A stretch of DNA of 64,000 bases. Origin: an uncultured Bacilli bacterium. Its GTDB lineage: Bacteria > Bacillota_I > Bacilli_A > RF39 > UBA660. Where the stretch lies: positions 34,746-98,745 of the forward strand of contig CAJTZC010000001.1 in NCBI GenBank assembly GCA_910583745.1, written 5' to 3'. Below, in pieces: positions 16,468-60,609 of this stretch. The notes beneath the pieces were generated by a model, which was not told the DNA's origin, ran no database searches, and saw nothing but the letters and a program-made list of their open reading frames with translations. Made by a program: the position numbers and the translations under genes. How positions within the stretch are numbered: position 1 is the stretch's first letter; every line of letters begins with the position of its first letter.

Positions 16468-16523
16468 TAAATCACGCCCTTTTTCCTCACATATTATATA
16501 CTATTTTTTTAAAAATTACTACG

Positions 16524-19685: not shown

Positions 19686-19708
19686 AATGTCAAATCACCT
19701 CTCGTCTA

Positions 19709-21496: not shown

Positions 21497-22041
21497 TGAC
21501 TCGTCACCGCTCCAAATCTAGAAGATTCTGCTCCGCTGAAGAAGTTATCGATAAGCATGCGCAGGTCGTCGTTGGATACTTGTTTGCTGTTTAAAGTACA
21601 GTTTGCCAAACCACTTATCAAGTTCTGTAAGCGTTTTTGTATAATCTCCGGTTTCTTTTCTCTAAATAAGATAAAGTATTCTGTATCTACTGCATTCATC
21701 TGTGTACTCATGAACATGTTGGCTTTGTTGATATCTTGCATCAAGAGTTTTCGAATGTGTTGGTTGTTCGTGTTGTTGTATTGCACTTGCAAATTTGCAA
21801 GGTATACGTTGATATCGACGGGTCTTCCGGCTGAAATCAACCAGAATTCGTAGTCGAGTGTGTTGTAGAATGTACGAAGTGAGAAGATGACATTGTTTTG
21901 GACATCTTGGTCGAGAATGAAAATGTTTTTTGGCTCTATCTTTACTCCTGTCACAAGAAAGCCATTGTCTAGAAGTATCATACCGTTTTGAATGGCTCTT
22001 ATAGGAATCCAATCTTCGGCAGGTTTATTTGTTGTTGCCAT
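21493..22041 (-). CDS. Hypothetical protein translationally coupled (ATGA overlap) to VirB4; possibly a split-off N-terminal VirB4 domain
   Basis: 182 aa, no TM. 182 + 595 aa approximates a full-length Gram-positive VirB4 (~780-830 aa). Confidence 0.35.
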   Translation of the reverse strand: MATTNKPAEDWIPIRAIQNGMILLDNGFLVTGVKIEPKNIFILDQDVQNNVIFSLRTFYNTLDYEFWLISAGRPVDINVYLANLQVQYNNTNNQHIRKLLMQDINKANMFMSTQMNAVDTEYFILFREKKPEIIQKRLQNLISGLANCTLNSKQVSNDDLRMLIDNFFSGAESSRFGAVTSQ

Positions 22042-22342
22042 TTTTATAGCACCATCCTCTCCATTTGTACGTCCTCTGTCTTACGAAGTAAAACGTGTAT
22101 ATGTTTGTAATCAGTTGTAATACGTTGTGATAATGTGGCACGGGGAAAACTAGAAACGCTGCGACCATGGCTGGCAACAGTATGAGTAGCATTCCCACGA
22201 TTGAGTCTGTATGTATTGCAAACATCATGATGAGTGTAAGTCCTACTCCCGAACTGAATAAAATTAAATCCAATGGAGTGAACAATCCTAGTATCATTTC
22301 CGACTTTTTTGAGTTGGCCGGAATTAAGTATCTGCCATTCAT
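22025..22342 (-). CDS. Small two-TM protein, VirB3/PrgI-like
   Basis: 105 aa with a hydrophobic helical hairpin. Positioned immediately upstream of VirB4 as in Gram-positive T4SS loci. Confidence 0.45.
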   Translation of the reverse strand: MNGRYLIPANSKKSEMILGLFTPLDLILFSSGVGLTLIMMFAIHTDSIVGMLLILLPAMVAAFLVFPVPHYHNVLQLITNIYTFYFVRQRTYKWRGWCYKNGNNK

Positions 22343-22362
22343 CTTTTATTCCTCTTTTCTTC

Positions 22363-24576
22363 TTACTTTTTATCATTTTTATTGCTAGCTTGTTCTGCAG
22401 CTTTCTTATTAGCTTGCTTTGCATCTGAGCGCAATTTCTCTTGAACCCTTTGTTGTTGGTATACTGTATTTTTTTCAATGTCTTTAAGATTTGGTTTAAA
22501 TCCATCTCCACTTAATATAGGATTTCCAGCAGTATCTTTTTTAATATTTCCAGCGGAGTCGCGAGTATATCCCGTTTCGACTATATCAGTTAATGCATCC
22601 AGTTGAGCTTGAGCATCCGCCGCTGTAGAAATGCTACCGATGTCGTCAATTTTAATGCGTTGTGAAGTAACACCTTTAACTCCTTGATGTGCATCAATGA
22701 AGTTGTTCAAACGGCCTGCCGCTTCCATGAATTGAAGTTTTTTGTCTTTGAGTACTTCTGCTTGACGTGAATCGCGCATAGTTTTTGCGCGGTTTTGTAA
22801 CTCTCCATAAGTAAGACCAGTATTTTTATCCACTGATAGTGCTTCAAGTTCAGCGAGAGTTTTACCAGTAACACTATCTACTGACGTTGCACTTGCACCA
22901 GACCTTTTAAACCTTAAATAATCGCTACCATCCATTACAGCTCCAGATTTAATCATATTGTCATAACGTTTGAATTCTGAGTCTGCCTGACTGTATTGAG
23001 CATCATTACGCCAAATGCTCGCAAGTGAATCGTTATAAAGTTTTTTATACTCTTGCAAAACTTCATCTTGATGTTTAATTTTAAGATAATCGTTATCAAG
23101 GCCAGTATATGCCATACTAGCAGAGCCAATAGTTCTACCCATGTCGGAAAGATGACCTCTCGTAGAGCCCATAAATCCCGAATGTGCGTGTGCGTAAGCA
23201 TCTCTGTTTACTCGAGCTGTAACGACATTCTTATTAACATTTCTACGCAAGTTGTTAGCATCTTTTATACTGTGGACATTTCTAGCACCCCAAGCATTTC
23301 GGAAGAATGTTGAAGAAGCACCTCCGACTCCACTTCCGAGTTTCTGAAATACATTTCCATCAGTAGAATTGAAGTTCCTTATAGCATTACCTACCATAGA
23401 TCCAGCAGTTCCTCCGAGGAATGCAGCCATACCACCGACAGGTTTGAGGCTCTTCATCGCGTCTGTTACTAGACCCATGCCCTTGATACCTAGGAGGTCC
23501 ATCAGAAGTTTTGGTGCATCTTTTGCGAACAATAGCAATCCGAATGTCAATAAGACTACAGTTATAATTTTTACTAGGCTTATGCCGTCTTCTGTCATGT
23601 TTCCGAATAGTCTTCCCACTGTGCCTGGAATGAGCGAGATGAGGAAGATTATCAAATACATCACGAGAAGATACATGAAGACTTCGATATAGACTTTTAT
23701 CAATGTATCTATCCAATTCTTTCTGAGTCCTTTTTTATTTGGAAGTAACTCTAGAGTGACTGGTACAGGTGCGATGAGCTGGATTATGGCTAGTTTGCCT
23801 ACTCGCTTTGCTAGGCTTATGCAGAAAATTAACATAAAATACAAGAGCACCAGCCCTGCGGCTGTCGATAAAAACGGTGTATAGTTGTAGTCGCCATTGG
23901 AGACAAAATCGCCATAAGGAGCTATGTTACCTGAGTGTTTGACTGTTTTATACGCTTCACAATAGTAATTGAACGTCGTATCTTTGAGGTATTCTTCGTT
24001 TGTACAATCTAGGGACGTCTTCCCATCGTTCGGATAGAGGAAAGCTGCGTATATCGAGGAGACCATCGTATTCGCGCCGTTTTGAATGTAATAATCGGTA
24101 AGCGAGCTGTAATTGTTTTTGTTCTGTTCGTACAACTCATAGTCGGCCGCGGTTTCGTTGTTCGCCCCTCCTAAAATCAGTGTGGGAATGACTCCCGAAG
24201 AGATGACCATGCTTTGGAACGAATAGAGCTTTGTGAACAACATCGGTGTCATCGAGATGATGACCAAAGCGATGATGACGTCTTTTACAAATGCAGACGC
24301 TCCGATTTTTTTGTCGTTGACCTTGTCCGGGTCGATGATGTAGTTCAGCAAATTGAATGCCAACACAAAGACCATGACGATGCTCAAAATGGTGTACATT
24401 CTCACCGTCACGTTTTTCACTATGCTATCGTCCAAAATAGAAGCATTCGATAAATAGTAGAATACAGCATAGGCCACTTTGGCAAGACTGTAAATACCTT
24501 TATCTATAAGGAAAGTCAGGTTTCTAAAGCCTTTTTCAAGAAAGTTTAGCCCTGTTAATAACAACGGATTAAGCAT
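22363..24576 (-). CDS. VirB6/TrbL-like polytopic membrane protein with ~400-aa hydrophilic C-terminal extension
   Basis: 737 aa. At least 6 TM helices in the N-terminal half, then a soluble Gly/Ser/Ala/Lys-rich C-terminal domain. Typical architecture of Gram-positive VirB6 homologues. Confidence 0.55.
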   Translation of the reverse strand: MLNPLLLTGLNFLEKGFRNLTFLIDKGIYSLAKVAYAVFYYLSNASILDDSIVKNVTVRMYTILSIVMVFVLAFNLLNYIIDPDKVNDKKIGASAFVKDVIIALVIISMTPMLFTKLYSFQSMVISSGVIPTLILGGANNETAADYELYEQNKNNYSSLTDYYIQNGANTMVSSIYAAFLYPNDGKTSLDCTNEEYLKDTTFNYYCEAYKTVKHSGNIAPYGDFVSNGDYNYTPFLSTAAGLVLLYFMLIFCISLAKRVGKLAIIQLIAPVPVTLELLPNKKGLRKNWIDTLIKVYIEVFMYLLVMYLIIFLISLIPGTVGRLFGNMTEDGISLVKIITVVLLTFGLLLFAKDAPKLLMDLLGIKGMGLVTDAMKSLKPVGGMAAFLGGTAGSMVGNAIRNFNSTDGNVFQKLGSGVGGASSTFFRNAWGARNVHSIKDANNLRRNVNKNVVTARVNRDAYAHAHSGFMGSTRGHLSDMGRTIGSASMAYTGLDNDYLKIKHQDEVLQEYKKLYNDSLASIWRNDAQYSQADSEFKRYDNMIKSGAVMDGSDYLRFKRSGASATSVDSVTGKTLAELEALSVDKNTGLTYGELQNRAKTMRDSRQAEVLKDKKLQFMEAAGRLNNFIDAHQGVKGVTSQRIKIDDIGSISTAADAQAQLDALTDIVETGYTRDSAGNIKKDTAGNPILSGDGFKPNLKDIEKNTVYQQQRVQEKLRSDAKQANKKAAEQASNKNDKK

Positions 24577-35091: not shown

Positions 35092-35706
35092 TTAGATGAT
35101 ATAGGAAGGATCTTTAAATCGTTTGGGTATTCCATTATATATCATCAAGGAAACTGGGATGTTTGCACTTTGCATGTTACGCTCTAAAGCTTCCTTACAC
35201 CTCGCGATGACTTTTTCAATTTTTACTAATTGTTCTACGCTTTCACACTTTACTTGATCATAGGCAAATTCGAAGGCTATACATTTTGCTCGGCACATCG
35301 TTTCGTCTCTCGGGGTCCCGTAGAAAATGATGTCTCCCTCTTCGAATAGAACCCTATCAAAAGTACTTTTGAAGAATTCTGGTGAGATGTCGTCCTGACT
35401 ATTGAGAGTTTCGAGTTCTTCGTCTGTCAAAGCTTCAATGTGATAGTTATTTCTTACATATATATAAGGATTTTGAAGCATCGAGTGAGCACGGTAGAAG
35501 TTGGCAGCAGCGTCGTCGATGACGGGTATCGTCGTCGATGCCGACTGTATAATCGCTTGCAACTCGTCAATTTTTAAAATCGGAAAAAGAAGACGTTCAA
35601 ACTGTTGTTTGTATTTGATTTGCAGTTCAGTAAATCTCTCTATCGTACCAAATCTCAGTAAAATCGATTGGAAATTGAACGTGTTCGGTAAATATTTATA
35701 TTCCAT
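35092..35706 (-). CDS. Hypothetical cytoplasmic protein; candidate immunity protein for the upstream giant toxin-like protein
   Basis: 204 aa, no signal peptide or TM. Second gene downstream of 36002-44758. Confidence 0.4.
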   Translation of the reverse strand: MEYKYLPNTFNFQSILLRFGTIERFTELQIKYKQQFERLLFPILKIDELQAIIQSASTTIPVIDDAAANFYRAHSMLQNPYIYVRNNYHIEALTDEELETLNSQDDISPEFFKSTFDRVLFEEGDIIFYGTPRDETMCRAKCIAFEFAYDQVKCESVEQLVKIEKVIARCKEALERNMQSANIPVSLMIYNGIPKRFKDPSYII

Positions 35707-35721: not shown

Positions 35722-35991
35722 CTATTTTTCACCCATCGTCACGTAGACATCGTTTGTCTCTTTGAACGCTTCCGGAGCCGTGAGGTCCATGTATGCGTCT
35801 TTTATGCTTTCTTCAGGTACTCCTAAATAATAGAGAATTCCTATCGCCGTGTCGACATCTAGCATGAAGAAGACGTTGTTGTTCTCTAGAATTGCACGTA
35901 GATTTTCTACCTTCTCTTTGTCTTCTTCTCCTAGTTCCCCTTGTACTTTTTTCTTTAAAAGTACTCTGATGTAATTTATGTCGTACTTCAT
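35722..35991 (-). CDS. Small hypothetical protein (89 aa); candidate immunity/cognate partner
   Basis: Starts 11 nt after the stop of the giant gene. Helical, acidic. Confidence 0.4.
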   Translation of the reverse strand: MKYDINYIRVLLKKKVQGELGEEDKEKVENLRAILENNNVFFMLDVDTAIGILYYLGVPEESIKDAYMDLTAPEAFKETNDVYVTMGEK

Positions 35992-36001
35992 TCGTCCCCT
36001 C

Positions 36002-39000
36002 CTATAATCTAAGACTTCTCAAGAATTGTTGGTATTCTATCGCATCTGTTATGATACGTTTTCCTAACGTTTTACTGTAGATGTAATGGACAGTTTGTCC
36101 TTCTTTATCATTATACTCGATATCGATTATCGATTCAACATTTTCAGAAATCGGCGATAAATCAGAAACGGCCATATTTTTATAATGATTGTTGAATTTA
36201 AGAGCGTGGAATTCTTTTTCGTCTAAAACATTTTCGAATACTGTCTTGAAGTAAGTATAGATTTCGTATCCATCCATATCGCCTGGAATCGGTCTGTCGA
36301 AATATTGCTCGATTATACTCTTCGTATCTGGAGCTTTAAATATTTTTTTAAATAAGCCACTGTTGCCGAATAACTTTTTACTTTTATCCAATTGGTCTTT
36401 TAAATAGCCATTTTGTGTGGCAAAACCAATTTGATTATCTGTAGCTAATAGTTGTCTATTGAAGACGTTGTCGATGTTATTTTTGAAATAATCTTGCGCG
36501 TATAGGCCATGTAGTCTTATTCCAGACATGGTTTTAGGCAATATTACGAAGCCATTCGTCTGCATGCCTGATTTGACTGCCGTGAGGTCTATTCTACCGT
36601 CTAACTTATCGGTTGCGTCTGCGACGAGTATTTTGTCGCCATATTTGATTTCGACCCAATAATGTCCTTTTCCTTTCACTTCGACATCTTCTGGATTAAA
36701 GCCGGCTTCGATTAATAGTTCTCTATATAACTGTGCCCAGCCTTTACAGACTACCTTGCGGTCTTCACTTAGGGAAGCGAACGTTATGTCTTCTTCGACT
36801 AAAGCGTTCTTTATTTCTTTGCTCGCTTTAAAGTAAGTCGAATCATAGTATATGGATTTGTTCAGTTCTATATATAATGCACGAGCCTTCGTGAAAGGAT
36901 TGTCGTATTGCGCGATGGCGGCTAGAATTTTGTTTTTCAATTCGATATTTCCGCGTTCTCTGTGTTTGTATTTCTCGACGAGACCTGTCTCGTGAACCGA
37001 AAGACTTCCCACTTGCATCGACAATTCCTCTGCAAGTTTTTCCGCTTGCACTACTTTTTGTGCTGTGTCAGCATCTAATTGGATGTCGACTCCGTCTAAA
37101 TAGTTTTTGACTTTAAAATCCTGTTTCAGTCTTTTCAATTCGATGCGTTTGATAATCATCTCTAAATCACTCAATTGTCTTACGTCTCCGACAGGTTGTG
37201 ATAATCTTATCTGTTTTAGTAATTCTCTGTTTAACCTTTTTATTTCAGAAGGTTCTGGTGTATCGATTTCCAAAGTTCCCGGGTCTGTCATTGCTTCGTC
37301 CATCGCTTCTAAGCCTGGATCTGTTTTTCCTAAGTCGAATACTTCCAAACCTGGGTCCGTTTTTCCTAAATCGAACACTTCTATACCAGGGTCTGTCTTT
37401 CCTAAATCGATTTCTGACATGTGCGTTTGTGTGTTGGCGTAGTTGAAATCTGGTCTTGTTCCTAAAGGGATTGTCGGTTCAACTTTAAATCTAACTTCAT
37501 AGGTTGTCAAATCCGCGCCCTCTGTGAGGTTTTCTTTAAGGGAATCTACGAGGAATGTATATTTCTCTCCCCAAGAAGATACGATAGGGTTTAATTGTTC
37601 ATCAAAACCGACAATGACCATAGCATGTCCTCCAATATCTTTTAAACTATCGTCTTCTTTTTTCGCAAATTGGAGTGCTCTATCTAATATCGAGGCTTTG
37701 TTTTTACGAGACATATCTTTTAAATCGAAATGACTAGCACCTATAGTTTGTAACCCATCGGAGTTCATCATCGATGCGAATAAATGTTTACGAAGGTCTT
37801 CATTTTTTATATCGAATGTCTGTGATGTAACCGTGCATGTAATCCCTTTTTCTTTGAAATAAGGAGTTACCTTTGTATCATAATCTTCTTTTCTTAACCC
37901 TCCGGAATTTTCTATAATCGATTCGATAGACATGTTTTGTTTCGTATAGTAATGTAAAAATATATCAAAAGCGAGGGCTTCAAAGTTATACGATGTCGAT
38001 TGGCCATCCGTATATTTTATGTCAAAACCTAATCTTTCCTTAAAAATTTGAGGACCATCTTTTATTGAATCCATATAAGTAATGAAATTGTTTGCTATCG
38101 CCATGTATGCACAACCATTACTTACGTAAGCTTCCGCTAAATTTACTTTTTGAATCGGTGTGGCGTCTTTAAAATGATGATTTATCATTGCGTCTAACAA
38201 CTTTGCTTTTTGTACATCTACCGCAGATAATTTGTTATTCTTCCAAAAGTCTCCAACAAGTCTATCGACGTCACTTTGGTCTCCTCCAAACTTTTCAGCA
38301 TAGACTCTTTCGAATGCTTCAAATGATTGATGAGGAGGAGGAGTATTTTTATATCTTTCTAAATCAGTGGGTTCTATATGTATGTTTTCGATGCCTACGA
38401 TGTTATATTGCTCTATGATTTTATCGGTCATGACGTATAAGTTTCCATAAAAGTCCAGTTCGGGAAAAACAATTTTTTCGTGTTCTATTCCGTTTACCGT
38501 GTAGGTCATCTTGTATGCTTGCCGATGATCGTTCACTTCTAAAGTGTAAGTCCCCAACGGTTTTATACTTTCTACTGTAAAATTTTTTGCTCCCTTTAGT
38601 CGTGGATTATTTAAATTGAGTTCGGCACCGTCTGATAAGACTATAAACGTTTGACGTACACCATCGACTACAACTGTTACCTCGTTTAACCCGTTTTCGA
38701 AATTTAACTGATTTCTATTAAATATTTTTTTAGAAGCTTCATAATCTGGTGTGATTGCTTTAATTCTCAGATTGCCATTCAATATATCTTTCACACTATT
38801 TATATTACTCAACGCCTTCACATCGAAATAGATTTTTCCAAAAAAAGCTTTTGCTGGTATGTTTACTATGTTACCATCGACTTCATAAACGGCGGTATAT
38901 ATTTTAGCAGCATTCTCGTCGACAGAAGCACTGAGTTTATTGTTAACGGGGTCATATACTAGCTTCTCTTGCAGGCCACTGCCTAGGATGTCCGCTAAGG

Positions 39001-42000
39001 ATTGTTTTGCTTCTGCAACGATGTTTTTAACAATGCCCATTCTTGTACGAGTTGCACTATTCGCTGGTGGATTCATCGTATCTAGAATGCTTTCGATTCG
39101 TAGAAGGTATTCTATATTTTGTACTCTATAATCGTCGCTGTACAGTTCCATTATCATGTTGCCCAAATGGGAACTAAAGGTGTTCTCTATCTCCGCGTCG
39201 CTTAGGTTTGCTTCTTGTAATGATTTTAATTTTTCAATCATGGCAGTGTATGTTTTTTTCGCAGTTTGCTTCTCCCTTTCGGATTGTCTATATATATCTG
39301 ACGAAACATCTGTCTTTGCGTTTTCTATCTTTGCTCTTTTCGCGGCTTCTAGGTTTGGCATCGTGAATTCAAAGCTCATGACGTTTGCCGTAGAGTCTTC
39401 TTTCACAGTGCTCTCAATATTGAATTCGAACTGTTTTCCCCAAGAAGAGACGGTCAAATCCAGATTCTCTTTTATGTCCGTTATAAGCATCGCATGTGCT
39501 CCAATATTTTCTTTAAAAAGACCATTCGTCGTCGCATTTGCTAATGCCCCATCGTATGCATCTTCGGTCATCAAAGAAGCGTTTGTTATTTTTAAATCGA
39601 AATTCTTTGCGATTAAAATATTGAAACTGTTCTTATTGTTTAAGAGTGCAGAAAAAATGCTGTTTTGAGACTTCGTCATACTCGTTTTTGCGTCGTTTGT
39701 CGTGAATCGATAATCGAAACCGAACCCTCTTTCTTTAAAATAAGGTACTAGCATTTGATTCAAGGTTGCTGGTCCCATGCCTGCTTCTGCATGACTTTTA
39801 AATATGTTTTCCACGGTGTGATATTCTTTAGAAATGTAGGATAAGTACATATCGAAGGCAAGTGCCTCTACGTTGTATGATTTTATTCCATCGATTTCAT
39901 AGAGCATATCGAAGCCCATTGTATCGCTGAAGATTTTTGCTCCGTTTTCTTGGCTTCCTATAAAGGTCATGAACGCATTTGACGATGCTATCCAGCCACA
40001 TCCGCCTTCGGCAAAGTGTTCAGAGACACTCAGTTTTTGTACATCTGTTATGTCTGGGAAATATTTTATCAATCGATTTTCTAATAATTCGGCTTTTGCA
40101 CCTTCTAAACCGGTTAAACTTTCTCCTTCCAATTTTTTATGTAAGAGTCTCGGTATATCGGATTGATTTCCACCATACTGTTCATTGCTCATCACTTCAG
40201 AGAACGCTTTGTATTCTGAAATTTTTGGTATGCGATTTCTGGTATCTGCAAGGTCTATTTTTTCAGCAACTACGTTTGTTACTCCACTCAAATTATTGGC
40301 TTGTATAAAGTCATTTATATTTAAAACGTGTTCATCTGTGTTCTTATAATAGATGGTTTTAGGCGTGGTCATGAACACTTCTTGTTGTACATTTCCTATT
40401 TGGTAAGAGACTTTGTATAACGCTTCGCTGTCTTCTATTTGGATATCGAAGTCGCCTTTGCCAGTTACTTTTACTACCTCCACCGATTTTGTATCTTTCA
40501 AGGTCGTCTCTAACATATCGTTTACATCTTTTAGGAATCCGTTTTTTGAAGAGATTACTAAAGTCGTCTCTCTTCCATCCACAGATAAAACGATTTCGTT
40601 TATACCTTGCTTTAATCCCATCGCTTCGGTTATGACCAGATTGGATTTTTTGATATTCGCAGAGACGTCTTTAATTTTAATTTTTCCCTGTGCTAACCAT
40701 GCTGCATATTCTGCGTTTTTTAGTATGGTCCATTTAAAATCTACTGTTCCATCGGATTGAGAGACAGTAATCGTCTTCGAGATGCCATCTAGTTCTAGAG
40801 TGATATCATAGTAAGCAAAGTTTTCATCGACTTTTGCGCCAAAACTTGCCATATCATCTATTAGAGCAATTTTGCTGTCGATGTTTGCCACTAGATTCTG
40901 TTTTAAAGTGCTTTCTGCTTCTAGCCCTGCGTCCTCTAAACTGCGCAACTTACTCTCTATCCTTTTATCTGGGAAATTCGGGAATGGCAGAATGTTATCG
41001 ATTGCATTCTTTTTTGCTATATCGCCAAGGAGAATTTCTCTGTTGTAGAATTTCTCTTCGACAGAGTCTAGCAATTTTACATATGCATCGATACCGATTT
41101 CTTGTCTCAGTGTAGAATCGAGATGCTCTTTTGTAGTAGAAATTCCGTCCATGAGTTCATAGAATTCTGCTTTGTCTAAAGAAATAATCTTATTTACAAA
41201 GGCTTCACTCGTCAAAAAGTAGGACTTACTAAAATTGGAAAATTGTTGCACGACGTCTTTAAAGTCGGAAAATTCTAATCCTCCTATTAAGGTTGTCAAC
41301 TCCGAGCTGTCAAAAATGCTGTTGAACTCTTGTGTCGTCAACGTCGATAAATTTTTAATAAATTCCGACTGAAAGTTTTTGTTTAAGAAATTATTAGAAT
41401 AGAGCGCAATTAATTTCTCCGTTCCTACTAATTCTTTGAGCATGATTGGGTCTTTGCTCATGAAAAATGTGTATTTGTTGGCCAGCTCATCCAATTTGCC
41501 ACTTTCGATGAGACCTCTTACAAAATCTTGTTTAAACTCTGTCATGCTTTCATAACTAGGTGGCAGTTGTGCTGTTCCATTTAAGACAGCTAAGAAGAAA
41601 TCGTCAAAAGCATCTTGTGTAATCGAGTGCTCGTTTATTTCTTCTAGTATGACGGGATTAAAACTCTCTTTGGCTTTAAAGATTTCGTGTGCCATTTCCA
41701 TGCTGGTCCCTGCATTCCCCATTTTAGGTAAAGTGAGTGGCTCGATACTTGGAATTGCTACTTCTTTGAAATCTGCATTCTTTATGAATATGTTTTTTAA
41801 ATCGTTCAGCAATTGTGTTCTCTGTTCTTTTTGGCTTATCTTTTCTAGGTTTTCTGCGAGTTCTGCTTGTATTCTCGAGGCTTCAATGCCCTGAGCAAAT
41901 TTCTGGGCTTTGTTTCCTTCGACTTGGGACAACATATCTTGTGCCATGTTTTTAGAGACATTGTGAGCAGTTCTTACGCCTCCGAAAGTACCAAAGCATA

Positions 42001-44758
42001 CGCCGGATACAAATCCTCCCAAGAAGGCTTGACCTAGTTGGTCGACGAATTCGCCGTTTGCTAGGCTACGAGCCTCATTTTCGGTTTTTCCTATCGAAAG
42101 ATAGTTTGCAATGCTGAGCGAATGGTTGCTCAAGTCGCCCGCGATAATCTCGTCGAAAATGTAGTTCAGTATCTCCGTCGCGAACTCTTCTTCTCCTTCC
42201 GCGATACCTTGACTTATCGCTCCTGCGACGAGGTAGGTTGACTTCGTCGCGATGCTTGCGACGGTTTCATTCGGAATGATAGTAGCAATCTTGGAAACCA
42301 ATTGTGAAGTGCTCGCGCCTAGTTTTGTCTCAAGATTGAGCAAGTGTCCGACAGAGTAACTCTCCATGAGCGTTTCGACAGCGGCTGCTGAGAAAGCGAG
42401 TGCGATGGCCGAACCATCTGTAAGACCTCTATCTAAGGCGTCGTTCAGTGATGAAACGTAAGAACGAGAACCCATCAACGTCGCACTTAAGGCTGGAACG
42501 GCTGCCCCGCCTGTCAACGCACTTACCCCTATCAAGCTGACACTGTCGGCCATACTCATGCCTGTGCTGTAAAGGAACGATAACCCTTCTCCATGTGCTT
42601 CTGCAATGTTCTGTGCGACTTCGCCTCTCCAAACGTCACCACTGCTATACACCGTCGTCCTTCTTATCTTTTCGTCGTTAAAATAGGAGTTTAGTGAGTA
42701 ACATGCTGCACTGAGTCCTTCTATCGGCGTGACGACGATGGACGCAATCGAAGAGAGAACAGGATGCTCTGTCGCGTAATTCTGGTCTTTCATCGTCCTA
42801 TCTGCTAACCATCTGTAATCCAATTCGTCCGAGATGTCTTGTAAGTATTTGTAAGCAGAATCTGCGCCTTCTTTGTTCAAAATGTAGTTAAAGATGCTCT
42901 TCTCCTCCGTGGTCATCAGAGACTTCCACACTCCGAAGTTTTCAACTAAATCGTCTTTGGACGATATTTGATAGAGGACTGTTCCGATGGTGATGTATTT
43001 CCCGTCGACAACAGCGTCTTCATTTAATATGCATGCGACGAGAGTCGTCACTTCTTCTTTTGAAGTGACATCGATGATAGGTAGACCGTCGTAGTAATCT
43101 GGTAAACTCGTATCTTGGTGCGCTTTTTTGAACTCTTCCAACTTGTCTAACTGTGCCCTGTCGAAAGTATTGTAGATTTTGTAGTCGGCATTGTTGATGT
43201 AAGCATCGATGTAATTTAAAGTGTATGCTATCTCTTTTGCAATCGTATCGTAGAGATAGAGATACGATGAGACTTGCGATTGGAGTTCTTGTATTTTGGC
43301 ATCGATGTTCTCGATGTTCTTCGTTCTCGCATCTATGGTGTTCTCGTAATCTTGAAACAATCTTTCAAAAAAGCTGTTCTGTTCGACAGTCTCTTTCCAT
43401 TTGTACACCGTTTTGGTCTCTTTACTGAAAAGAGGTTTGTATGTCTCTTCAGTGAGAAGTGATTTTAGCTCTTTTAAAAGGTTGCTGTCTTTATACAATT
43501 CGCCAATCGTTACCGTGTTATAGATGGCTTCGCTGTCGTAGTCGTTCGATAGATAAGGGTCGACGTAGGTGATATGCGTCTTTCCGTCTTTGTCTTGGTA
43601 CTCCCACGCGGCTGGTTGGGAAAGAACGTCGTCCAAGTTTCCACCAAAACGCATGTCGTTGATGACTTTTAGCACTGTGTCCAACTCGCGATTGTCTATC
43701 GTCTCTTTTTGATTTTTTAAAGTGCTTATTTCTCTTTTGGTCTCTTTTATTGCGTCATCCAATTCTTTTAAACTAGAAAACTCGAGTCCATAAGCTTGAA
43801 GGTACGAAGCGGCAAGCATCTCGCCTCGACGGGTATTGTCTTTATCGTTTTGTATTTCGTCTATCAGATTTTCAATGGTGATAGAGCCGCTTAGGACGCG
43901 CATTATATCTGCTTCTCTCAGTCCGAATACTTTGAGAGCACCGACATATTCACTCGAATCGATTTCTGTGCGGACCGTTCTACTGAATCTATCTGTATCG
44001 GTGATGTATCCGTTTCCGTTTTTGAATCCCCCTTTGTCCGTCGCATTTTCTGCGTCGTTTTGGTTCAAATCGAAACCGAACTCTCCATCGTTGTTTCCGA
44101 ACGAATTTCCGGTTCGATTATTAAATAGGTTCATAGAATCGCTGTCGTTTTGGTTTGTCCTAGAACCTCCTGTGTTGAAAGTGTTTTGATCGAATTTGTC
44201 TTCGGTGTCTTTTTTTAGATTTATATCGGCATTGCCATCTCTATTGGTATTAAACATATTATTTTTTGTGTCTGTGTTTTCGTTCGAAAAATTTTTGTTC
44301 ATGTCAAAAGAACCGTTTTTACCGGCATTCGCATTTTCTATCCTGCTGGCAGCGTCTTTTCCATTTCCATTGGACGAGAAGGCACCCTCAGTTTGGTCGG
44401 CAATGGAATTTCCCATTGCATTTGGATTGTTCGAGTTATTCGTTCCATTTTGTATTATACCATTGCCCGGTTGAGCACCGTTCTGGATGGCGTCTTGGCC
44501 GAAAGGATTCGTCGCGCTGTTGTTTGGTGCGACGTTGATATTCTGAGAAGTTTGGGTATCCGAACCCAACGATAAATCCAATGTCTCCGTCTGGTTCGAA
44601 TTCGTTCCCCCGTAGGCATTCGCACCATTTAAATTCGAATTATAATTTCCTTTTTCTATCGCATTGGACAGATTTATGTTTTCTCCTTTTGTCGGGTCGT
44701 TATAGAGTTTTCCGAGGTTGACATTGTCAAACTTAAAATTGAAATTAAATGCTTCCAT
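36002..44758 (-). CDS. Giant 2918-aa multidomain protein: N/G/S/T-rich disordered N-terminus, long helical region, two tandem papain-like cysteine-peptidase-like modules, DLGKTDPGxEVF x3 repeat, C-terminal transglutaminase-like Cys-His-Asp domain
   Basis: AAGAGG RBS 9 nt upstream. Module 1 (~39380-40100): EGGCGWIASSNAF ... GAHAMLITDI ... SSWG. Module 2 (~37500-38220): SNGCAYMAIANNF ... GGHAMVIVGF ... SSWG. C-term (~36600-36760): VCKGWAQLYRELLIEAGF...GHYWVEIKYGDKILVADATD. No signal peptide. Confidence 0.8.
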   Translation of the reverse strand: MEAFNFNFKFDNVNLGKLYNDPTKGENINLSNAIEKGNYNSNLNGANAYGGTNSNQTETLDLSLGSDTQTSQNINVAPNNSATNPFGQDAIQNGAQPGNGIIQNGTNNSNNPNAMGNSIADQTEGAFSSNGNGKDAASRIENANAGKNGSFDMNKNFSNENTDTKNNMFNTNRDGNADINLKKDTEDKFDQNTFNTGGSRTNQNDSDSMNLFNNRTGNSFGNNDGEFGFDLNQNDAENATDKGGFKNGNGYITDTDRFSRTVRTEIDSSEYVGALKVFGLREADIMRVLSGSITIENLIDEIQNDKDNTRRGEMLAASYLQAYGLEFSSLKELDDAIKETKREISTLKNQKETIDNRELDTVLKVINDMRFGGNLDDVLSQPAAWEYQDKDGKTHITYVDPYLSNDYDSEAIYNTVTIGELYKDSNLLKELKSLLTEETYKPLFSKETKTVYKWKETVEQNSFFERLFQDYENTIDARTKNIENIDAKIQELQSQVSSYLYLYDTIAKEIAYTLNYIDAYINNADYKIYNTFDRAQLDKLEEFKKAHQDTSLPDYYDGLPIIDVTSKEEVTTLVACILNEDAVVDGKYITIGTVLYQISSKDDLVENFGVWKSLMTTEEKSIFNYILNKEGADSAYKYLQDISDELDYRWLADRTMKDQNYATEHPVLSSIASIVVTPIEGLSAACYSLNSYFNDEKIRRTTVYSSGDVWRGEVAQNIAEAHGEGLSFLYSTGMSMADSVSLIGVSALTGGAAVPALSATLMGSRSYVSSLNDALDRGLTDGSAIALAFSAAAVETLMESYSVGHLLNLETKLGASTSQLVSKIATIIPNETVASIATKSTYLVAGAISQGIAEGEEEFATEILNYIFDEIIAGDLSNHSLSIANYLSIGKTENEARSLANGEFVDQLGQAFLGGFVSGVCFGTFGGVRTAHNVSKNMAQDMLSQVEGNKAQKFAQGIEASRIQAELAENLEKISQKEQRTQLLNDLKNIFIKNADFKEVAIPSIEPLTLPKMGNAGTSMEMAHEIFKAKESFNPVILEEINEHSITQDAFDDFFLAVLNGTAQLPPSYESMTEFKQDFVRGLIESGKLDELANKYTFFMSKDPIMLKELVGTEKLIALYSNNFLNKNFQSEFIKNLSTLTTQEFNSIFDSSELTTLIGGLEFSDFKDVVQQFSNFSKSYFLTSEAFVNKIISLDKAEFYELMDGISTTKEHLDSTLRQEIGIDAYVKLLDSVEEKFYNREILLGDIAKKNAIDNILPFPNFPDKRIESKLRSLEDAGLEAESTLKQNLVANIDSKIALIDDMASFGAKVDENFAYYDITLELDGISKTITVSQSDGTVDFKWTILKNAEYAAWLAQGKIKIKDVSANIKKSNLVITEAMGLKQGINEIVLSVDGRETTLVISSKNGFLKDVNDMLETTLKDTKSVEVVKVTGKGDFDIQIEDSEALYKVSYQIGNVQQEVFMTTPKTIYYKNTDEHVLNINDFIQANNLSGVTNVVAEKIDLADTRNRIPKISEYKAFSEVMSNEQYGGNQSDIPRLLHKKLEGESLTGLEGAKAELLENRLIKYFPDITDVQKLSVSEHFAEGGCGWIASSNAFMTFIGSQENGAKIFSDTMGFDMLYEIDGIKSYNVEALAFDMYLSYISKEYHTVENIFKSHAEAGMGPATLNQMLVPYFKERGFGFDYRFTTNDAKTSMTKSQNSIFSALLNNKNSFNILIAKNFDLKITNASLMTEDAYDGALANATTNGLFKENIGAHAMLITDIKENLDLTVSSWGKQFEFNIESTVKEDSTANVMSFEFTMPNLEAAKRAKIENAKTDVSSDIYRQSEREKQTAKKTYTAMIEKLKSLQEANLSDAEIENTFSSHLGNMIMELYSDDYRVQNIEYLLRIESILDTMNPPANSATRTRMGIVKNIVAEAKQSLADILGSGLQEKLVYDPVNNKLSASVDENAAKIYTAVYEVDGNIVNIPAKAFFGKIYFDVKALSNINSVKDILNGNLRIKAITPDYEASKKIFNRNQLNFENGLNEVTVVVDGVRQTFIVLSDGAELNLNNPRLKGAKNFTVESIKPLGTYTLEVNDHRQAYKMTYTVNGIEHEKIVFPELDFYGNLYVMTDKIIEQYNIVGIENIHIEPTDLERYKNTPPPHQSFEAFERVYAEKFGGDQSDVDRLVGDFWKNNKLSAVDVQKAKLLDAMINHHFKDATPIQKVNLAEAYVSNGCAYMAIANNFITYMDSIKDGPQIFKERLGFDIKYTDGQSTSYNFEALAFDIFLHYYTKQNMSIESIIENSGGLRKEDYDTKVTPYFKEKGITCTVTSQTFDIKNEDLRKHLFASMMNSDGLQTIGASHFDLKDMSRKNKASILDRALQFAKKEDDSLKDIGGHAMVIVGFDEQLNPIVSSWGEKYTFLVDSLKENLTEGADLTTYEVRFKVEPTIPLGTRPDFNYANTQTHMSEIDLGKTDPGIEVFDLGKTDPGLEVFDLGKTDPGLEAMDEAMTDPGTLEIDTPEPSEIKRLNRELLKQIRLSQPVGDVRQLSDLEMIIKRIELKRLKQDFKVKNYLDGVDIQLDADTAQKVVQAEKLAEELSMQVGSLSVHETGLVEKYKHRERGNIELKNKILAAIAQYDNPFTKARALYIELNKSIYYDSTYFKASKEIKNALVEEDITFASLSEDRKVVCKGWAQLYRELLIEAGFNPEDVEVKGKGHYWVEIKYGDKILVADATDKLDGRIDLTAVKSGMQTNGFVILPKTMSGIRLHGLYAQDYFKNNIDNVFNRQLLATDNQIGFATQNGYLKDQLDKSKKLFGNSGLFKKIFKAPDTKSIIEQYFDRPIPGDMDGYEIYTYFKTVFENVLDEKEFHALKFNNHYKNMAVSDLSPISENVESIIDIEYNDKEGQTVHYIYSKTLGKRIITDAIEYQQFLRSLRL
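37301..37408. repeat. 3 x 36-bp in-frame tandem repeat inside the giant gene, encoding DLGKTDPG(I/L)E(V/A)(F/M)
   Basis: Units 37301-37336, 37337-37372 and 37373-37408 are near-identical. Confidence 0.6.
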
Positions 44759-44784: not shown

Positions 44785-45030
44785 TTACTTGTCTTTTAGC
44801 TTTCTTTGTAAACTAGGTATCATCGTGCCATTTATATCTTTCGACACGTTTGCAAGGGTTCTCTGTGTGTCATCCATTTCTTTTTTGATGAAGGATTCCC
44901 CATCGATTTCGATGCTTCTCTTGGCTACTTTTTCGGCAAGAGAAAGCTCGCTTTGTAGAGCTTCTATTTTGTCGTCGATGCTCCGGAGTCTCTCGATTAT
45001 CTCTCGATATTTTCTATTTTCTTCGTTCAC
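44785..45030 (-). CDS. Small helical protein (81 aa), possible WXG100-superfamily/Lap-like T7SS accessory
   Basis: Predicted coiled-coil/helical hairpin composition. Sits immediately upstream of the giant gene. Confidence 0.35.
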   Translation of the reverse strand: MNEENRKYREIIERLRSIDDKIEALQSELSLAEKVAKRSIEIDGESFIKKEMDDTQRTLANVSKDINGTMIPSLQRKLKDK

Positions 45031-45329
45031 TAGTTCAGCCCTCCGTCGAATTTTTTGATGGTCTCGTTGCTCAGCGTCTCGTATAGTTCAATGGCTTTTT
45101 TTAGAGTTGTTGCGTATTGATTTCGTTTCGAATAGAGCATGGAGCATTTCATTTTAAGGTTGTCGATGTCATTTAAAAGTTGTGGAATGTTTTGAGACTG
45201 GTAGAACTCTCTGCAGACTTCGAGTTGGCTACAAATGTCTTCTAGAGTTTTTCTCTCTTCTTCTTTGTAATATTCTATCTGTTCGATGTCTTTTTCGAGC
45301 AGTTCTCTATCTAAAAGTCCCTCATTCAT
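45030..45329 (-). CDS. Small helical protein (99 aa), WXG100-sized
   Basis: Helical, ~100 aa, no W-x-G motif. Stop/start abutting the next gene. Confidence 0.35.
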   Translation of the reverse strand: MNEGLLDRELLEKDIEQIEYYKEEERKTLEDICSQLEVCREFYQSQNIPQLLNDIDNLKMKCSMLYSKRNQYATTLKKAIELYETLSNETIKKFDGGLN

Positions 45330-45340
45330 ATTCCTCTCTC

Positions 45341-45910
45341 CTATGGCAAATCGAAATCAAATTCGTTTATTTTTACTTCCTCTAGCGTCTTTATCTTTGC
45401 CTCGATTTTGTTTTCGATGGCTTCGATTTCTGAAAACATTTCTTTGGCTTTTGTTTTAAAATTTTTACAAGCGATTCTTACATTGACGACTTTTCTTCGT
45501 GCGGCTTCTATCGAGGGCCTAACGCTGTAATAGAAGCTTCTATCTATTCTATCGAACTCTGCCACTATCGCATTGGTGTGGAGATAACATTCGTCGAAAG
45601 TATGTAGCAAGGTGTCCTTTTCATTGAGGTTGCACTTCAGTTTTTTTCCGAATGCACTGTATCTCTCGTAGATGAAGTCGTAGAGATTTTTTCTCTCTTT
45701 CAAAGACAGTTTCAATAAGTCTGTCTCTTTTCTATCTCCGTAAATTTCGCTTTCAAACTTTTCCGAGTTCCCATCGCGCCAATCGGTGCAACTCGTCTTG
45801 AGTTGATTGAACAGATTGAGTTCTATTTCTTCATATTCATCTAAAAGTTTCTGTAATCGTTCGATGGCGTTTTTTAGCGATGAAATATCAACTTCTAGCA
45901 TAAATATCAC
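45341..45910 (-). CDS. Helical hypothetical protein (189 aa)
   Basis: No TM. Coiled-coil-like. Confidence 0.35.
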   Translation of the reverse strand: MIFMLEVDISSLKNAIERLQKLLDEYEEIELNLFNQLKTSCTDWRDGNSEKFESEIYGDRKETDLLKLSLKERKNLYDFIYERYSAFGKKLKCNLNEKDTLLHTFDECYLHTNAIVAEFDRIDRSFYYSVRPSIEAARRKVVNVRIACKNFKTKAKEMFSEIEAIENKIEAKIKTLEEVKINEFDFDLP

Positions 45911-56054: not shown

Positions 56055-56801
56055 TTATTGCAGATGCTTTTTATCGAATATATAGAGACCAAAGCTAGTC
56101 GTGAAAAGGAAGAGAATCGCCGAATAGAGACACATCGTTTTGAGGTCTCCTCTCAGATTGGTCAGTTGAAAAGCCTGTCCTGACGGGATGAAGTCGTAGA
56201 TAAATTTTAGAATGGTTTTTTGCACTCCCGAAGAATTGGCGATTTTATGAGAGAGATTGCTCGTGATTAGGAACGCCCATATTTTGAGGGAAAGCGCAAC
56301 GATGGAAGAGGCTGATTTGCTCGAGATGTTCATCGTGATGAACGTATAGACCGATGCAAAGGAGACACTTAGCAAAAGAGAGGTCCCCATCATATAGAGA
56401 ACTGTTTCGACTGGAGTGGTCACACTGAACAGGAATATGGTCCCTGTCAATAGGATAGCTCCTATGAAGACAAAGTCGAATACGACGGCAACGAGACTAC
56501 ACGTGATGAGGTTCGATAAATAGATGTTCGTCCTGGAATGTCCACATATCAATTTGTTTCTGAGTGTTCCATTTCCGTATTCTGTTCCCACGAAGTTGGC
56601 GGTGAATATGGCGACCAAGATGCCTCCGATGACATTGAATGAGAAAAGGACTGCCCCCACTTCGTTTTCACAATTTACACAGTTCGGCAAGTAGTTGTTG
56701 AAATAAAAATAGATGCCCAAGAAAAACATTCCAACCAGTATGAGCCAAAAAGCCTTCTCTTTTTTTAAGCGATAGAAGTTGGTCATTAAAAGTCTGTGCA
56801 T
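56055..56801 (-). CDS. ABC-2 type transporter permease
   Basis: 248 aa, 6 TM. Confidence 0.55.
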   Translation of the reverse strand: MHRLLMTNFYRLKKEKAFWLILVGMFFLGIYFYFNNYLPNCVNCENEVGAVLFSFNVIGGILVAIFTANFVGTEYGNGTLRNKLICGHSRTNIYLSNLITCSLVAVVFDFVFIGAILLTGTIFLFSVTTPVETVLYMMGTSLLLSVSFASVYTFITMNISSKSASSIVALSLKIWAFLITSNLSHKIANSSGVQKTILKFIYDFIPSGQAFQLTNLRGDLKTMCLYSAILFLFTTSFGLYIFDKKHLQ

Positions 56802-56897
56802 AGATAATACCTCCTGATTTTATTGTAAAATAAAAATGTTAAGAAATCTATAAATGATTTGTTAACATTGTGTTAAGATTTTAAATGCTCTCTTTAC

Positions 56898-57632
56898 TTA
56901 GGCAATCTCGATAGTACTGATTAAATCGAGGACCTTTTCTTTTGAGAAATATCCCTTGTTTTTGAAAGTGATGATGTATTTTTTGTCTCCTGCGATGAGA
57001 TTTACTTCGTATTTGTCGTCGTTCTCCACCACGTAGCCTGTGTACTTCCCTTCTATACTATGGAATTGGCCATCGACCAAAAGATTGTCTTTTAAGTAGC
57101 GCACTGCATACGATTCTTCGATTTCTTTTGTGCTCGTGAAAAGGTTTACTTTTTCTTCTTTCCATTCGATGAGGTATTTTATGAACTCGATGTCGTTTTT
57201 AAATTTGTGTGCGTCCATAAACTTTTTTATGCTCTTTTCCGCTTTGGTTTCTTTGCCCAAATTTGTAAAGTTTTCGACTAAGCTTCCCGTGAAACTCTTC
57301 GATTGAAGGTAACTCCATCCCGTGTTGCCTATCCCTTCCTCGTTCTTTAAAACGTATACGATATCTTTACTGTCTTCGTCTGTCTTTTTCTCAAATTGCG
57401 AAAACTCATTTTTTATTTTGATGTCTCCTAAGGTGAGGTACTCTGAAGGGTCCAAGGTTTTAGAATCGATTTTCCAAGTCTCACTCTCTATTAAGTGCAT
57501 GTCTTTCTCACTGGTATATTTGTATCTATTGAGAACGGAATATTTGTATCCGAATAGAATGCCTCCCAGCACCAATAGTCCTATTATCGTTATTATTAAG
57601 ATTGTATTTTTCTTTTTCATTTTTAACTCCAT
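56898..57632 (-). CDS. Membrane-anchored hypothetical protein
   Basis: 244 aa, N-terminal TM. 10 nt downstream of the fused ABC gene. Confidence 0.4.
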   Translation of the reverse strand: MELKMKKKNTILIITIIGLLVLGGILFGYKYSVLNRYKYTSEKDMHLIESETWKIDSKTLDPSEYLTLGDIKIKNEFSQFEKKTDEDSKDIVYVLKNEEGIGNTGWSYLQSKSFTGSLVENFTNLGKETKAEKSIKKFMDAHKFKNDIEFIKYLIEWKEEKVNLFTSTKEIEESYAVRYLKDNLLVDGQFHSIEGKYTGYVVENDDKYEVNLIAGDKKYIITFKNKGYFSKEKVLDLISTIEIA

Positions 57633-57641
57633 TTTCTTTTT

Positions 57642-60236: not shown

Positions 60237-60273
60237 TTTTTATCCTACTTTCATTGCTATTTTATCATATTAA

Positions 60274-60507
60274 GACAAACATTTTAGGTGGTTTGCCAAG
60301 TTACTAGATGAGTATTTCGAAGTTATAATAGCACATGCTACTTACAATATATCTTCTGGTAAAATCGAAGGTATTAATAACAAAATTAAAACTCTATGAA
60401 GACAAGGTTATGGCTATCCTGATGGCGAATACTTCTTCTTAAAGTTATTTGATATTTCTAGGATTTCCTATGTCAGAAATGTTAAATCCCACAAGATTTG
60501 TGATTTG
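60274..60507 (+). pseudogene. ISL3-family transposase C-terminal remnant with internal stop
   Basis: Translation DKHFRWFAKLLDEYFEVIIAHATYNISSGKIEGINNKIKTL*RQGYGYPDGEYFFLKLFDISRI matches the ISL3 C-terminal consensus (NGxIEGxNNKIKxxKRxxYGYrnFxxFxxRIL). No upstream transposase body is present. Confidence 0.55.
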
Positions 60508-60609
60508 AGCCATAATTTCATACTATCTGTATTTGTCTTATTAAAATAATAAAAAAAGAGATTTTAAACAAAATTATCTATTTTTGCAACAGTCTCTTTT
60601 CATGTTTTT

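Follow-up and report, generated by a model that had tools for sequence, protein, structure and literature searches.

A giant candidate toxin gene beside essC in an uncultured Bacilli bacterium, with a conserved domain shared with gut phage proteins

The stretch of DNA analysed here (the window; 64,000 nucleotides of contig CAJTZC010000001.1 from an uncultured Bacilli bacterium) contains an open reading frame (ORF) for a protein of 2,918 amino acids (aa), close to a gene for EssC, a type VII secretion system (T7SS) ATPase, and the question it raises is what such a protein could be for. Type VIIb secretion (T7SSb) is known for LXG toxins of 400–800 aa, and how these cross the wall and membrane of a target cell is an open question. 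The 320-kDa product of the giant gene is probably a polymorphic antibacterial toxin and a dedicated substrate of the adjacent EssC ATPase. A T7SS-exported polymorphic toxin had also been proposed in an earlier, sequence-only reading of the window, and this proposal is now favoured by the recurrence of the essC gene cassette, by the swapping of C-terminal regions among relatives and by an immunity-like gene family. Homologous proteins are cited below by P numbers and loci by L numbers; coordinates within the window are given in Table 1.

The giant ORF is uninterrupted over 8,757 nt and begins with ATG, as had been reported, and at the ~37% G+C of the window a frame of this length is not a chance product. 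Its start appears sound, being the first start codon after an in-frame stop, with a GAAGAGG ribosome-binding site ~10 nt on its 5' side and with seven homologues which align with the protein from residue ~5. Because the ORF already begins at the first start codon after the stop, no upstream extension is possible. When the whole protein was scanned, no segment reached a Kyte-Doolittle 19-residue mean of 1.6, indicating that the giant has neither a signal peptide nor a classical transmembrane helix; this agrees with the lack of a signal peptide noted previously, and no mis-called start was found upstream. A cell-wall anchor or hidden signal peptide was considered and rejected, as was the identification of the giant as a tape-measure protein, for which no PHROG match was obtained. 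The whole protein gave nothing significant against Pfam, NCBIfam and PHROGs and nothing in a phmmer sequence search of the PDB, and megablast of the toxin locus against plasmids returned no match.

The 1,528-aa protein encoded upstream was identified as EssC by the curated equivalog model TIGR03928 T7_EssCb_Firm (962 bits against a cut-off of 778 bits), and it also matches Pfam FtsK_SpoIIIE (E = 5.7e-33). It has a single hydrophobic segment (aa ~259–283), and no FHA domain was detected in its first 228 aa. Five tightly spaced small genes (95, 226, 189, 99, and 81 aa), all with soluble products, lie between essC and the giant gene, the start of the 81-aa gene overlapping the stop of the 99-aa gene, and the whole run from essC to the giant is apparently a single operon. 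The small helical genes upstream and the two ORFs downstream which had been described were recovered, the latter with strong ribosome-binding sites. Of the essC/esaB context proposed with them the essC part stands, whereas the esaB part comes down to a weak ubiquitin-like Pfam match of the 95-aa protein that lies below the cut-off (E = 0.002).

This arrangement was found to recur. When 185,579 species genomes were searched for the giant's conserved N-terminal domain (see below), 19 loci of close relatives (at least 37% identity) came out, and essC lies within 10 kb in 12 of these 19, or in 10 of the 12 with adequate flank; for a single-copy gene in a genome of a few Mb, such proximity by chance is estimated at <1% per locus. 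The 95-aa gene adjoins essC in 11 of the 12 essC-bearing loci of the scan, and does so in L003 also; in the twelfth, L022, the end of the fetched sequence cuts essC off. The full order (essC, ~95-aa gene, genes of ~228, ~188, ~98, and ~81 aa, giant) was observed in L003, L012, and L058, among them the loci of P0003 and P0002, and L010, L014, L015, and L021 have the cassette order without a detectable 81-aa gene. In L014 a 398-aa ORF on the reverse strand (4684–5880, minus), possibly an insertion sequence, lies between the 95-aa gene and the 226-aa homologue. All carriers are uncultured gut or animal-associated metagenome-assembled genomes (MAGs) labelled Bacilli, Erysipelotrichaceae, or Candidatus Coprovivens. 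Several short contigs with the cassette or the domain (L011, L012, L015, L016, and L048) are binned as Muribaculaceae, Methanobacteriaceae, and Akkermansia MAGs, which is most likely mis-binning but may reflect mobility of the element.

Individually, the small proteins gave few leads. The 226-aa protein has syntenic homologues in L003, L010, L012, L014, L015, L021, L025, and L058, one of which contains NWKGVDE and thereby a WxG, and has no Pfam or PDB match. The 189-aa protein, with syntenic homologues at 26–47% identity, resembles Pfam LXG (E = 0.0028, 18 bits against a cut-off of 26.5 bits); KINxF(D/E)(F/Y)xL, which is kept in all of its syntenic homologues, and W-x-D-G-N-S-x-x-F near residue 41 are possible export-signal and WXG-like elements. 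The 99-aa protein has syntenic homologues at 34–46% identity in six loci and no family match in Pfam or NCBIfam. Profile searches of the PDB with the 95-, 226-, and 189-aa proteins returned nothing but coiled-coil noise, and for this reason EsaB-like and WXG/LXG-like are used only as candidate labels. Nevertheless, as the cassette of essC and small genes recurs, and as the Cys/His module of the giant sits on LXG/WXG proteins near EssC/WXG100 elsewhere (see below), the comparisons indicate that the link to type VII secretion is statistical and not merely local.

The predicted payload lies towards the C-terminus. The motifs listed in the sequence-only reading occur along the giant in the order given there: GCGW at 1586, GAHAM at 1753 and SSWG at 1771 in the first Cys/His module, GCA(Y) at 2215, GGHAM at 2376 and SSWG at 2394 in the second, and then DLGKTDPG at 2451, 2463, and 2475, CKGWA at 2671, HYWVEI at 2699 and DAT at 2714. 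The second Cys motif had been read as GCGA and is in fact NGCAY. The repeat length of ~240 aa also required correction, as each copy measures ~570 aa (aa ~1266–1816 vs. ~1887–2443, 28% identity, E = 6e-62) and consists of a beta-rich part (~260 aa) followed by a Cys/His module (~290 aa). Module B aligns to module A, with every family-invariant residue kept in both. The beta-rich domain accompanies the module in 28 further members of the family, and mid-size relatives with a helical, beta and module cassette have no recognisable N-terminal trafficking domain. Two relatives (P0032 and P0035) keep the whole giant plan, with a C-terminal domain at 45% identity, but have a single beta and module unit instead of two. 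The triple DLGKTDPGxEVF linker, confirmed in the giant as a 36-nt tandem repeat, is missing in these closest single-module relatives, which have another acidic linker.

An AlphaFold model of the module, based on an alignment of 12 copies, has a predicted local distance difference test (pLDDT) score of 85.2 and a predicted template modelling (pTM) score of 0.89. In a fold comparison it matched almost only papain-fold (clan CA) peptidases, the nearest being the C39-like group. The modelled topology is that of papain: Cys68 (module A numbering) opens the core helix (68–82), His236 opens a beta-strand (236–243) and S-S-W lies on the next strand. Gly10, Cys68, Asn75, Phe91, Gly96, His236, Val251, Ser253, and Trp254 are invariant in the 12 copies, the Cys and His being invariant in a set of 98 sequences as well, and Gln13 is nearly invariant and forms with Gly10 a YGGxQ motif. 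The earlier description of the modules as papain-type therefore holds for the predicted fold, in which the core helix starts with the Cys and a strand with the His, but not for papain family C1. Membership of this family was rejected, neither its full set of motifs (Q-x5-C, H, N-S-W-G) nor a match to the Peptidase_C1 profile being present. The position equivalent to papain Asn175 (N175-S-W) is Ser or Cys in the module (S/C-S-W), and there is no conserved Gln in the 10 residues that precede the module Cys, the nearly invariant Gln of YGGxQ being 55 residues upstream; these two features set the module apart from family C1, and it is best described as a predicted papain-fold, C39-like thiol enzyme.

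The family of the module is large. When 1.84 billion cluster representatives were scanned exhaustively with HMMER, the module matched 1,483 proteins at E ≤ 1e-3 and 465 at E ≤ 1e-30 (~1,500 clusters at 50% identity), a size which word-seeded protein searches, with 6, 9, and 2 relatives, had greatly understated. Two thirds of the best 150 matches are proteins of 300–550 aa with the module at the C-terminus, and the rest include proteins of 1,300–7,700 aa. Peptidase_C39_2 (PF13529) was matched by 12 of 98 short module relatives at E ≤ 0.01 (best E = 5.9e-6), P0019 reaching 22 bits against a cut-off of 24 bits, and the giant's own modules had no Pfam match, Peptidase_C39_2 included, at E ≤ 0.1. 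By these profile comparisons the module represents a family that has no Pfam model of its own and is related to Peptidase_C39_2 without belonging to it by the curated threshold. The same 98 short members include nine with LXG (best E = 2.3e-17), two with WXG100, one with EspC and one with a PAAR-like DUF4280. The locus of P0017 encodes an EssC with an FHA domain, five WXG100 proteins and DUF4176, and that of P0018 has three small helical genes upstream. The LXG/WXG fusions and T7SS loci thus mark the module as a domain of polymorphic toxins, employed mainly by type VII systems.

Downstream of the giant, the 204-aa ORF was found to belong to a family, here d204, that tracks the module across loci, in line with its earlier nomination as an immunity candidate. 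Of 11 loci with a detected module, 10 encode a d204 member (hidden Markov model E from 1e-14 to 1e-82). It stands immediately after the genes of P0003, P0004, P0002, P0018, and P0017, follows the giants in L014, L015, and L017, and is elsewhere in the locus in L013 and L022. The exception is P0019, which has two paralogous small flanking genes (L008 5574–6008 and 7334–7603), the upstream one with a lipoprotein signal; this pair may be an alternative immunity family. All nine giant-linked d204 members are without a hydrophobic N-terminus and would be cytoplasmic, whereas the two beside short LXG/WXG-type toxins (L007 4572–5339 and L009 7007–7693) have a membrane anchor or a lipoprotein signal (LAAC lipobox). 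In this sample of nine against two, the split suggests different sites of action. The d204 family is unannotated, and its distribution is immunity-like.

C39 peptidases cut double-glycine leaders. A (Y/F)GG is conserved near the N-terminus of all EssC-type giants (window 44606–44614, giant aa 49–51), and in every module a nearly invariant YGGxQ precedes the catalytic Cys by ~55 aa (giant aa 1527–1531 and 2156–2160). Given the C39-like fold these motifs may be sites of self-cleavage at a double glycine; alternatively, the Gln may contribute the missing part of the active site. The modules might accordingly be built-in releasing peptidases that cut the giant at (Y/F)GG and free its C-terminal or N-terminal domain after export. 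This is considered unlikely, since hundreds of short proteins have the module as their sole C-terminal domain after an LXG/WXG-type N-terminus, which leaves nothing to release, and since the module is followed by a dedicated, conserved partner gene whose product, where the toxin is short, has a membrane anchor or a lipoprotein signal in the manner of immunity proteins. Moreover, YGGxQ is modelled inside the domain (pLDDT 80–94) and may be structural, e.g., in providing an oxyanion-hole Gln. The roles of warhead and releasing peptidase are not mutually exclusive, and that the modules may also, or instead, process the giant at (Y/F)GG is a real alternative.

A transglutaminase-like C-terminus had been claimed as well, and the profile evidence bears this out. 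The isolated core segment scored below the threshold of Pfam Transglut_core (PF01841), although in the correct register (E = 0.043, 14.5 bits against a cut-off of 23), while the equivalent segments of P0028 and P0002 pass it (34.6 bits, E = 2.4e-8, and 27.5 bits, E = 3.9e-6, respectively). Comparison by hhalign of the giant's group with the members passing Pfam gave a probability of 95.4% (E = 1.9e-8), and in it the columns of Cys, His, and Asp are aligned. A profile search of the PDB found the transglutaminase-like protein 9crn (E = 4.7e-4), again with the triad columns aligned, and PNGase weakly. Cys2671, His2699, and Asp2714 are invariant in seven homologues, the C-terminal 428 aa are 45% identical in P0032 and P0035, and the domain also occurs in the stand-alone proteins P0024 and P0025. 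On these alignments the core is a transglutaminase-like Cys-His-Asp domain. AlphaFold on aa 2561–2918 gave a model of low confidence (pLDDT 47), in which only the Cys helix and the three following strands are confident, and Foldseek with this model returned only noise. Taken together, the fold and family of the three payload domains are indicated by structure prediction and profile comparison. The 89-aa ORF that follows the giant, with an AGGAGG ribosome-binding site overlapping the giant's stop codon, has a weak PHROG repressor match (E = 3e-4). None of the fetched loci encodes a homologue of it, and the P0024 and P0025 contigs stop short of the site where one could follow.

The N-terminal part of the giant has a different character. 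Its first 270 aa are 22% Asn and 11% Gly, which matches the Asn/Gly/Ser-rich N-terminus of ~270 aa described previously. Within it, the motif of aa 1–75 is conserved in all seven EssC-type giants that were compared and has no detectable similarity to the N-termini of the phage giants described below. P0002, P0003, and P0004 share aa 5–1,000/1,090 at 37–42% identity and then diverge, with their C-terminal regions swapped. A conserved N-terminal ~1,000 aa with variable C-terminal payloads is, by these alignments, a polymorphic architecture.

The most conserved portion, aa ~600–945, is 52–60% identical to close family members compared with ~35% elsewhere in the giant. It is rich in Gly, Ala, and Ser, contains the motifs FNYxxNxxG, PxEG, YSxGD, GMSMAD, TGG, MGSRxYxSxLN, and SQGxxEGEEE, and ends in a GF(A/V)SGxCFG glycine zipper, which 15 of 16 family members possess. 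Searches of Pfam and the PDB gave no relative of the domain, and these searches indicate that it is previously undescribed. It occurs in 46 genome loci and in 98 viral contigs. The most distant protein matches (P0005 and P0006) are phage-encoded and have only this domain in common with the giant, the P0006 gene following those for a terminase, a P22/SU10-type portal, a capsid and a peptidoglycan-binding protein, and P0005 being in an integrase-bearing prophage. The 98 viral contigs come from a scan of IMG/VR, with 26–34% identity over nearly the full length of the domain. The carrier ORFs, in 60 complete cases, have 1,049–3,927 aa (median ~3,370), and in them the domain begins at aa ~210–510. 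They occupy a fixed place in the structural module (capsid homologue in 57 of 80 loci, upstream peptidoglycan-binding protein in 70 of 80), and 16 of 27 distant genome loci are of the same prophage type. The IMG/VR loci L059–L138 and L057 belong to metagenomic phages with a P22/SU10-type portal, on contigs of 20–45 kb of which about a quarter to a third is one ORF of ~3,400 aa. No deposited phage genome matched either the bacterial or the phage version of the domain, and one unannotated Subdoligranulum plasmid matched it at 30% identity. On present matches the only other proteins with the domain are giant ones from the virion modules of gut Clostridia phages.

Several features suggest a membrane-penetrating role for this domain, namely its composition, its glycine zipper, its location within the virion modules of phages and the predicted cytoplasmic site of the giants' immunity proteins. 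A more specific possibility, less probable than not, is that a module for membrane penetration or translocation, of phage origin, has been grafted onto EssC-exported toxins, so that the giants would be self-translocating and would bring their thiol enzymes into the cytoplasm of a target Gram-positive cell. This would fit the immunity split, as the immunity proteins are cytoplasmic for the nine giant-linked cases and anchored or lipoproteins for the two linked to short toxins without the domain.

A mechanism can be proposed. The conserved N-terminal ~75 aa and the helical region would bind the four small helical proteins whose genes lie between essC and the giant, and together these would take the role of LXG domains and Lap/WXG partners, presenting the giant to EssC for export. 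The glycine-zipper-rich domain would then engage a membrane, probably that of the target cell, and help to carry the C-terminal payload across. There the three putative thiol enzymes (two C39-like modules and the transglutaminase-like domain) would cleave or modify target-cell proteins or envelope peptides. The producer would be protected against the C39-like modules by the cytoplasmic 204-aa protein, and possibly against the transglutaminase-like domain by the 89-aa protein.

Several observations weigh against the giant being an EssC-exported toxin. Secretion, toxicity and immunity are all predictions, as are partner binding by the small proteins, the substrates and export by EssC itself. The giant is without an LXG (PF04740) or WXG domain at Pfam E ≤ 0.1, the first of which had already been remarked on, and none of the five small partners reaches any family threshold in Pfam, NCBIfam or PDB profiles. 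The close loci L020 and L026 and the P0004 locus have no essC within 10 kb. EsaA/YueB, EssA, EssB/YukC, and EsxA/WXG100 were not found among the large ORFs of the window with Pfam and NCBIfam, and EsaA, EssA, EssB, and EsxA are absent from the precomputed annotations of the L001 and L003 flanks. Regarding the payload, segments of the giant itself are below Pfam thresholds, the structure model of the C-terminal domain is poor (pLDDT 47), and the catalytic competence of the C39-like modules is not certain given Ser or Cys at the Asn175 position and no Gln just before the Cys.

The missing core genes lend themselves to another explanation, in which the giant is chiefly a structural or delivery part of a non-canonical, EssC-only type VII apparatus, a wall-spanning stand-in for EsaA/EssB which punctures the membrane of a neighbouring cell, and its enzymes are accessory. 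In keeping with this, searches of the window and of the relatives' flanks gave no gene for EsaA, EssA, or EssB, the N-terminal ~1,000 aa are conserved, with the core domain (52–60% identity) above any enzymatic part, and the same domain is present in giant phage virion-module proteins, where a membrane-penetrating role is plausible. However, the other T7SSb genes could sit elsewhere in the genome, the window being 64 kb; C-terminal swapping with downstream immunity-like genes is the signature of a cargo toxin; and there is no sign that the giant stays attached to its producer. An apparatus role is thus regarded as improbable, somewhat more so than that of a releasing peptidase. Least credible of all is that the giant is a phage or mobile-element 'polyvalent' protein, transferred alongside DNA in a virion or through the conjugative type IV system nearby, and only incidentally adjacent to essC: the domain it shares with ~3,400-aa phage structural-module proteins, the Gram-positive conjugation module at 14–25 kb of the window and the recombinase and transposase genes near the P0003 locus are outweighed by the absence of essC, VirB4, and coupling protein from all 80 viral loci (0/80), by an N-terminal motif unlike that of the phage giants, which have only aa ~600–950 in common with the window protein and neither a Cys/His module nor a transglutaminase core, and by the lack of flanking phage structural genes, with ~10 kb of unrelated genes between giant and conjugation module, so that unlike polyvalent proteins, whose genes belong to phages or conjugative elements and which enter with the DNA of these (Iyer et al., 2017; PMC5512222), it is not adjacent to phage structural or type IV secretion system (T4SS) genes.

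As a candidate EssC-exported toxin, the giant can be compared with the LXG toxins of T7SSb (TelA–E of S. intermedius, the LXG toxins of B. subtilis, and EsaD/TspA of S. aureus). It shares with them adjacency to essC, small helical partner genes upstream, a conserved N-terminal trafficking part, a variable C-terminal toxin part and an immunity gene downstream, and some LXG toxins carry the same C39-like module. Small helical partner genes, Lap1/Lap2 or EsxB/C/D, precede known T7SSb toxins (PMC9600955). The giant differs in being without LXG or WXG, in being five to ten times larger, and in having three enzymatic domains instead of one. Its N-terminus is a low-complexity region followed by a conserved block of ~1,000 aa with the phage-shared domain, and genes for EsaA, EssA, EssB, and EsxA were not found near it. 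For a large non-LXG toxin genetically tied to an essC variant, the nearest precedent in Bacillota is the Rhs toxin that accompanies a variant EssC in Listeria monocytogenes (PMC10327511), although no Rhs/YD repeats were detected in the giant and its conserved N-terminal region and payload are unrelated.

Both types of payload domain have counterparts among recognised polymorphic-toxin domains, namely Tox-PLC39 and Tox-TGase (Zhang et al., 2012; PMC3482391). In that work Tox-PLC39 is listed with type II secretion system (T2SS), type VI secretion system (T6SS), and PVC trafficking, not with T7SS, and Tox-TGase is not tied to T7SS trafficking. Tox-PLC39 and Peptidase_C39_2 resemble the module in their papain-like fold, in the order of Cys and His and in their use as C-terminal toxin domains. 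The module family differs by an extra N-terminal helical bundle, by YGGxQ, and by Ser or Cys in place of Asp or Asn after the His strand. The transglutaminase superfamily (Tox-TGase, 9crn, and PNGase) has the same order and spacing of Cys, His, and Asp, in a CxxW/FA helix, an HxW strand and a D(A/V)T strand, whereas the giant's core is below the Pfam threshold and has a C-terminal extension of ~190 aa. Finally, TelE is a membrane-active T7SS toxin which depends on a glycine zipper (PMC10434224). By motif alone it can be likened to the giant, each having GxxxGxxxG in a small-residue-rich hydrophobic segment, but the giant's zipper is in a conserved N-terminal domain of 345 aa common with phages and not in a C-terminal toxin.

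The locus thus defines a family of EssC-linked toxins, as predicted here, of 2,000–4,500 aa, without LXG and with small partner genes of their own, among uncultured Bacilli and Erysipelotrichaceae of the gut; a literature search returned no paper on this family. Beyond what had been read earlier, the analysis adds the corrected repeat length, the conservation of the N-terminal ~1,000 aa, which include the phage-shared domain, and the finding that other T7SSb core genes were not detected. If the domain does mediate membrane passage, it would link phage genome ejection with interbacterial toxin delivery and offer a handle on the entry of T7SSb toxins. An essC cassette without the other canonical core genes also raises the question of what a minimal T7SSb machine is.

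Table 1. Position of the giant gene, its predicted domains and neighbouring genes in the window.
Feature	Position	Strand	Basis or remark
Giant polymorphic toxin gene (candidate)	36002–44758	minus	2,918 aa
aa 1–75, candidate secretion or partner-binding signal	44534–44758	minus	NxNFxxxNxxLxKL ... [YF]GG ... ETxDL
Asn/Gly/Ser/Thr-rich low-complexity region, aa ~76–270	43949–44533	minus	composition; poor conservation among homologues
Most conserved domain, aa 601–945	41924–42958	minus	small-residue-rich, moderately hydrophobic, ends in GxxxGxxxG glycine zipper
Beta-rich domain, repeat copy A, aa 1261–1519	40202–40978	minus	internal repeat
Module A, predicted C39-like papain-fold, aa 1520–1810	39329–40201	minus	YGGNQ 1527–1531, Cys1587, His1755, SSW 1771–1773
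Beta-rich domain, repeat copy B, aa 1890–2144	38327–39091	minus	internal repeat
Module B, predicted C39-like papain-fold, aa 2145–2440	37439–38326	minus	FGGDQ, Cys2216, His2378, SSW 2394–2396
DLGKTDPGxEVF x3 linker	37306–37410	minus	36-nt tandem repeat, 2.9 copies
Transglutaminase-like core, aa ~2615–2730	36569–36916	minus	Cys2671, His2699, Asp2714
C-terminal extension, aa ~2731–2918 (~190 aa)	36005–36568	minus	conserved together with transglutaminase-like core
89-aa ORF, candidate immunity protein for transglutaminase-like domain	35722–35991	minus	position after giant
204-aa ORF, candidate cognate immunity protein for C39-like modules	35092–35706	minus	conserved family after module-bearing toxins
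81-aa helical protein, candidate targeting factor or chaperone	44785–45030	minus	homologues in L003, L012
99-aa helical protein, candidate targeting factor or chaperone	45030–45329	minus	syntenic homologues
189-aa helical protein, weak LXG-like similarity	45341–45910	minus	conserved C-terminal KINxF(D/E)FxL motif
226-aa soluble helical protein, candidate WXG-like partner	45985–46665	minus	conserved W-x-(A/G/T/S)-(P/V)-(E/D) motif
95-aa gene overlapping essC end, candidate ubiquitin-like EsaB/YukD analogue	46846–47133	minus	weak Pfam match
essC, type VIIb FtsK/SpoIIIE-family ATPase, 1,528 aa	47123–51709	minus	TIGR03928 and Pfam FtsK_SpoIIIE
Coupling protein	14218–16467		T4SS-DNA_transf E = 8.6e-56
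M23 peptidase, 715 aa	17538–19685		
VirB4-like ATPase	19709–21496		AAA_10/TraG P-loop

Elsewhere in the window, a conjugative type IV secretion module of the Gram-positive type (14218–24576, minus) was identified together with large unannotated ORFs, and the window may lie on an integrative and conjugative element or a plasmid. Upstream of essC (52644–60236, minus) are genes for a histidine kinase, a response regulator, two ABC-2 permeases, ABC ATPases and an 864-aa ABC-FtsX fusion, which resemble a module for the sensing of and resistance to peptide antibiotics. From 60001 to 64000 the G+C content falls from ~0.40 to 0.24–0.30 at the window end, which may mark the boundary of an acquired region. 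A CotH kinase-family protein (8113–9588, minus, E = 1.4e-56) adjoins a family 2 glycosyltransferase (3503–4906), and the host of P0004 has CotE; the carriers may be spore formers.

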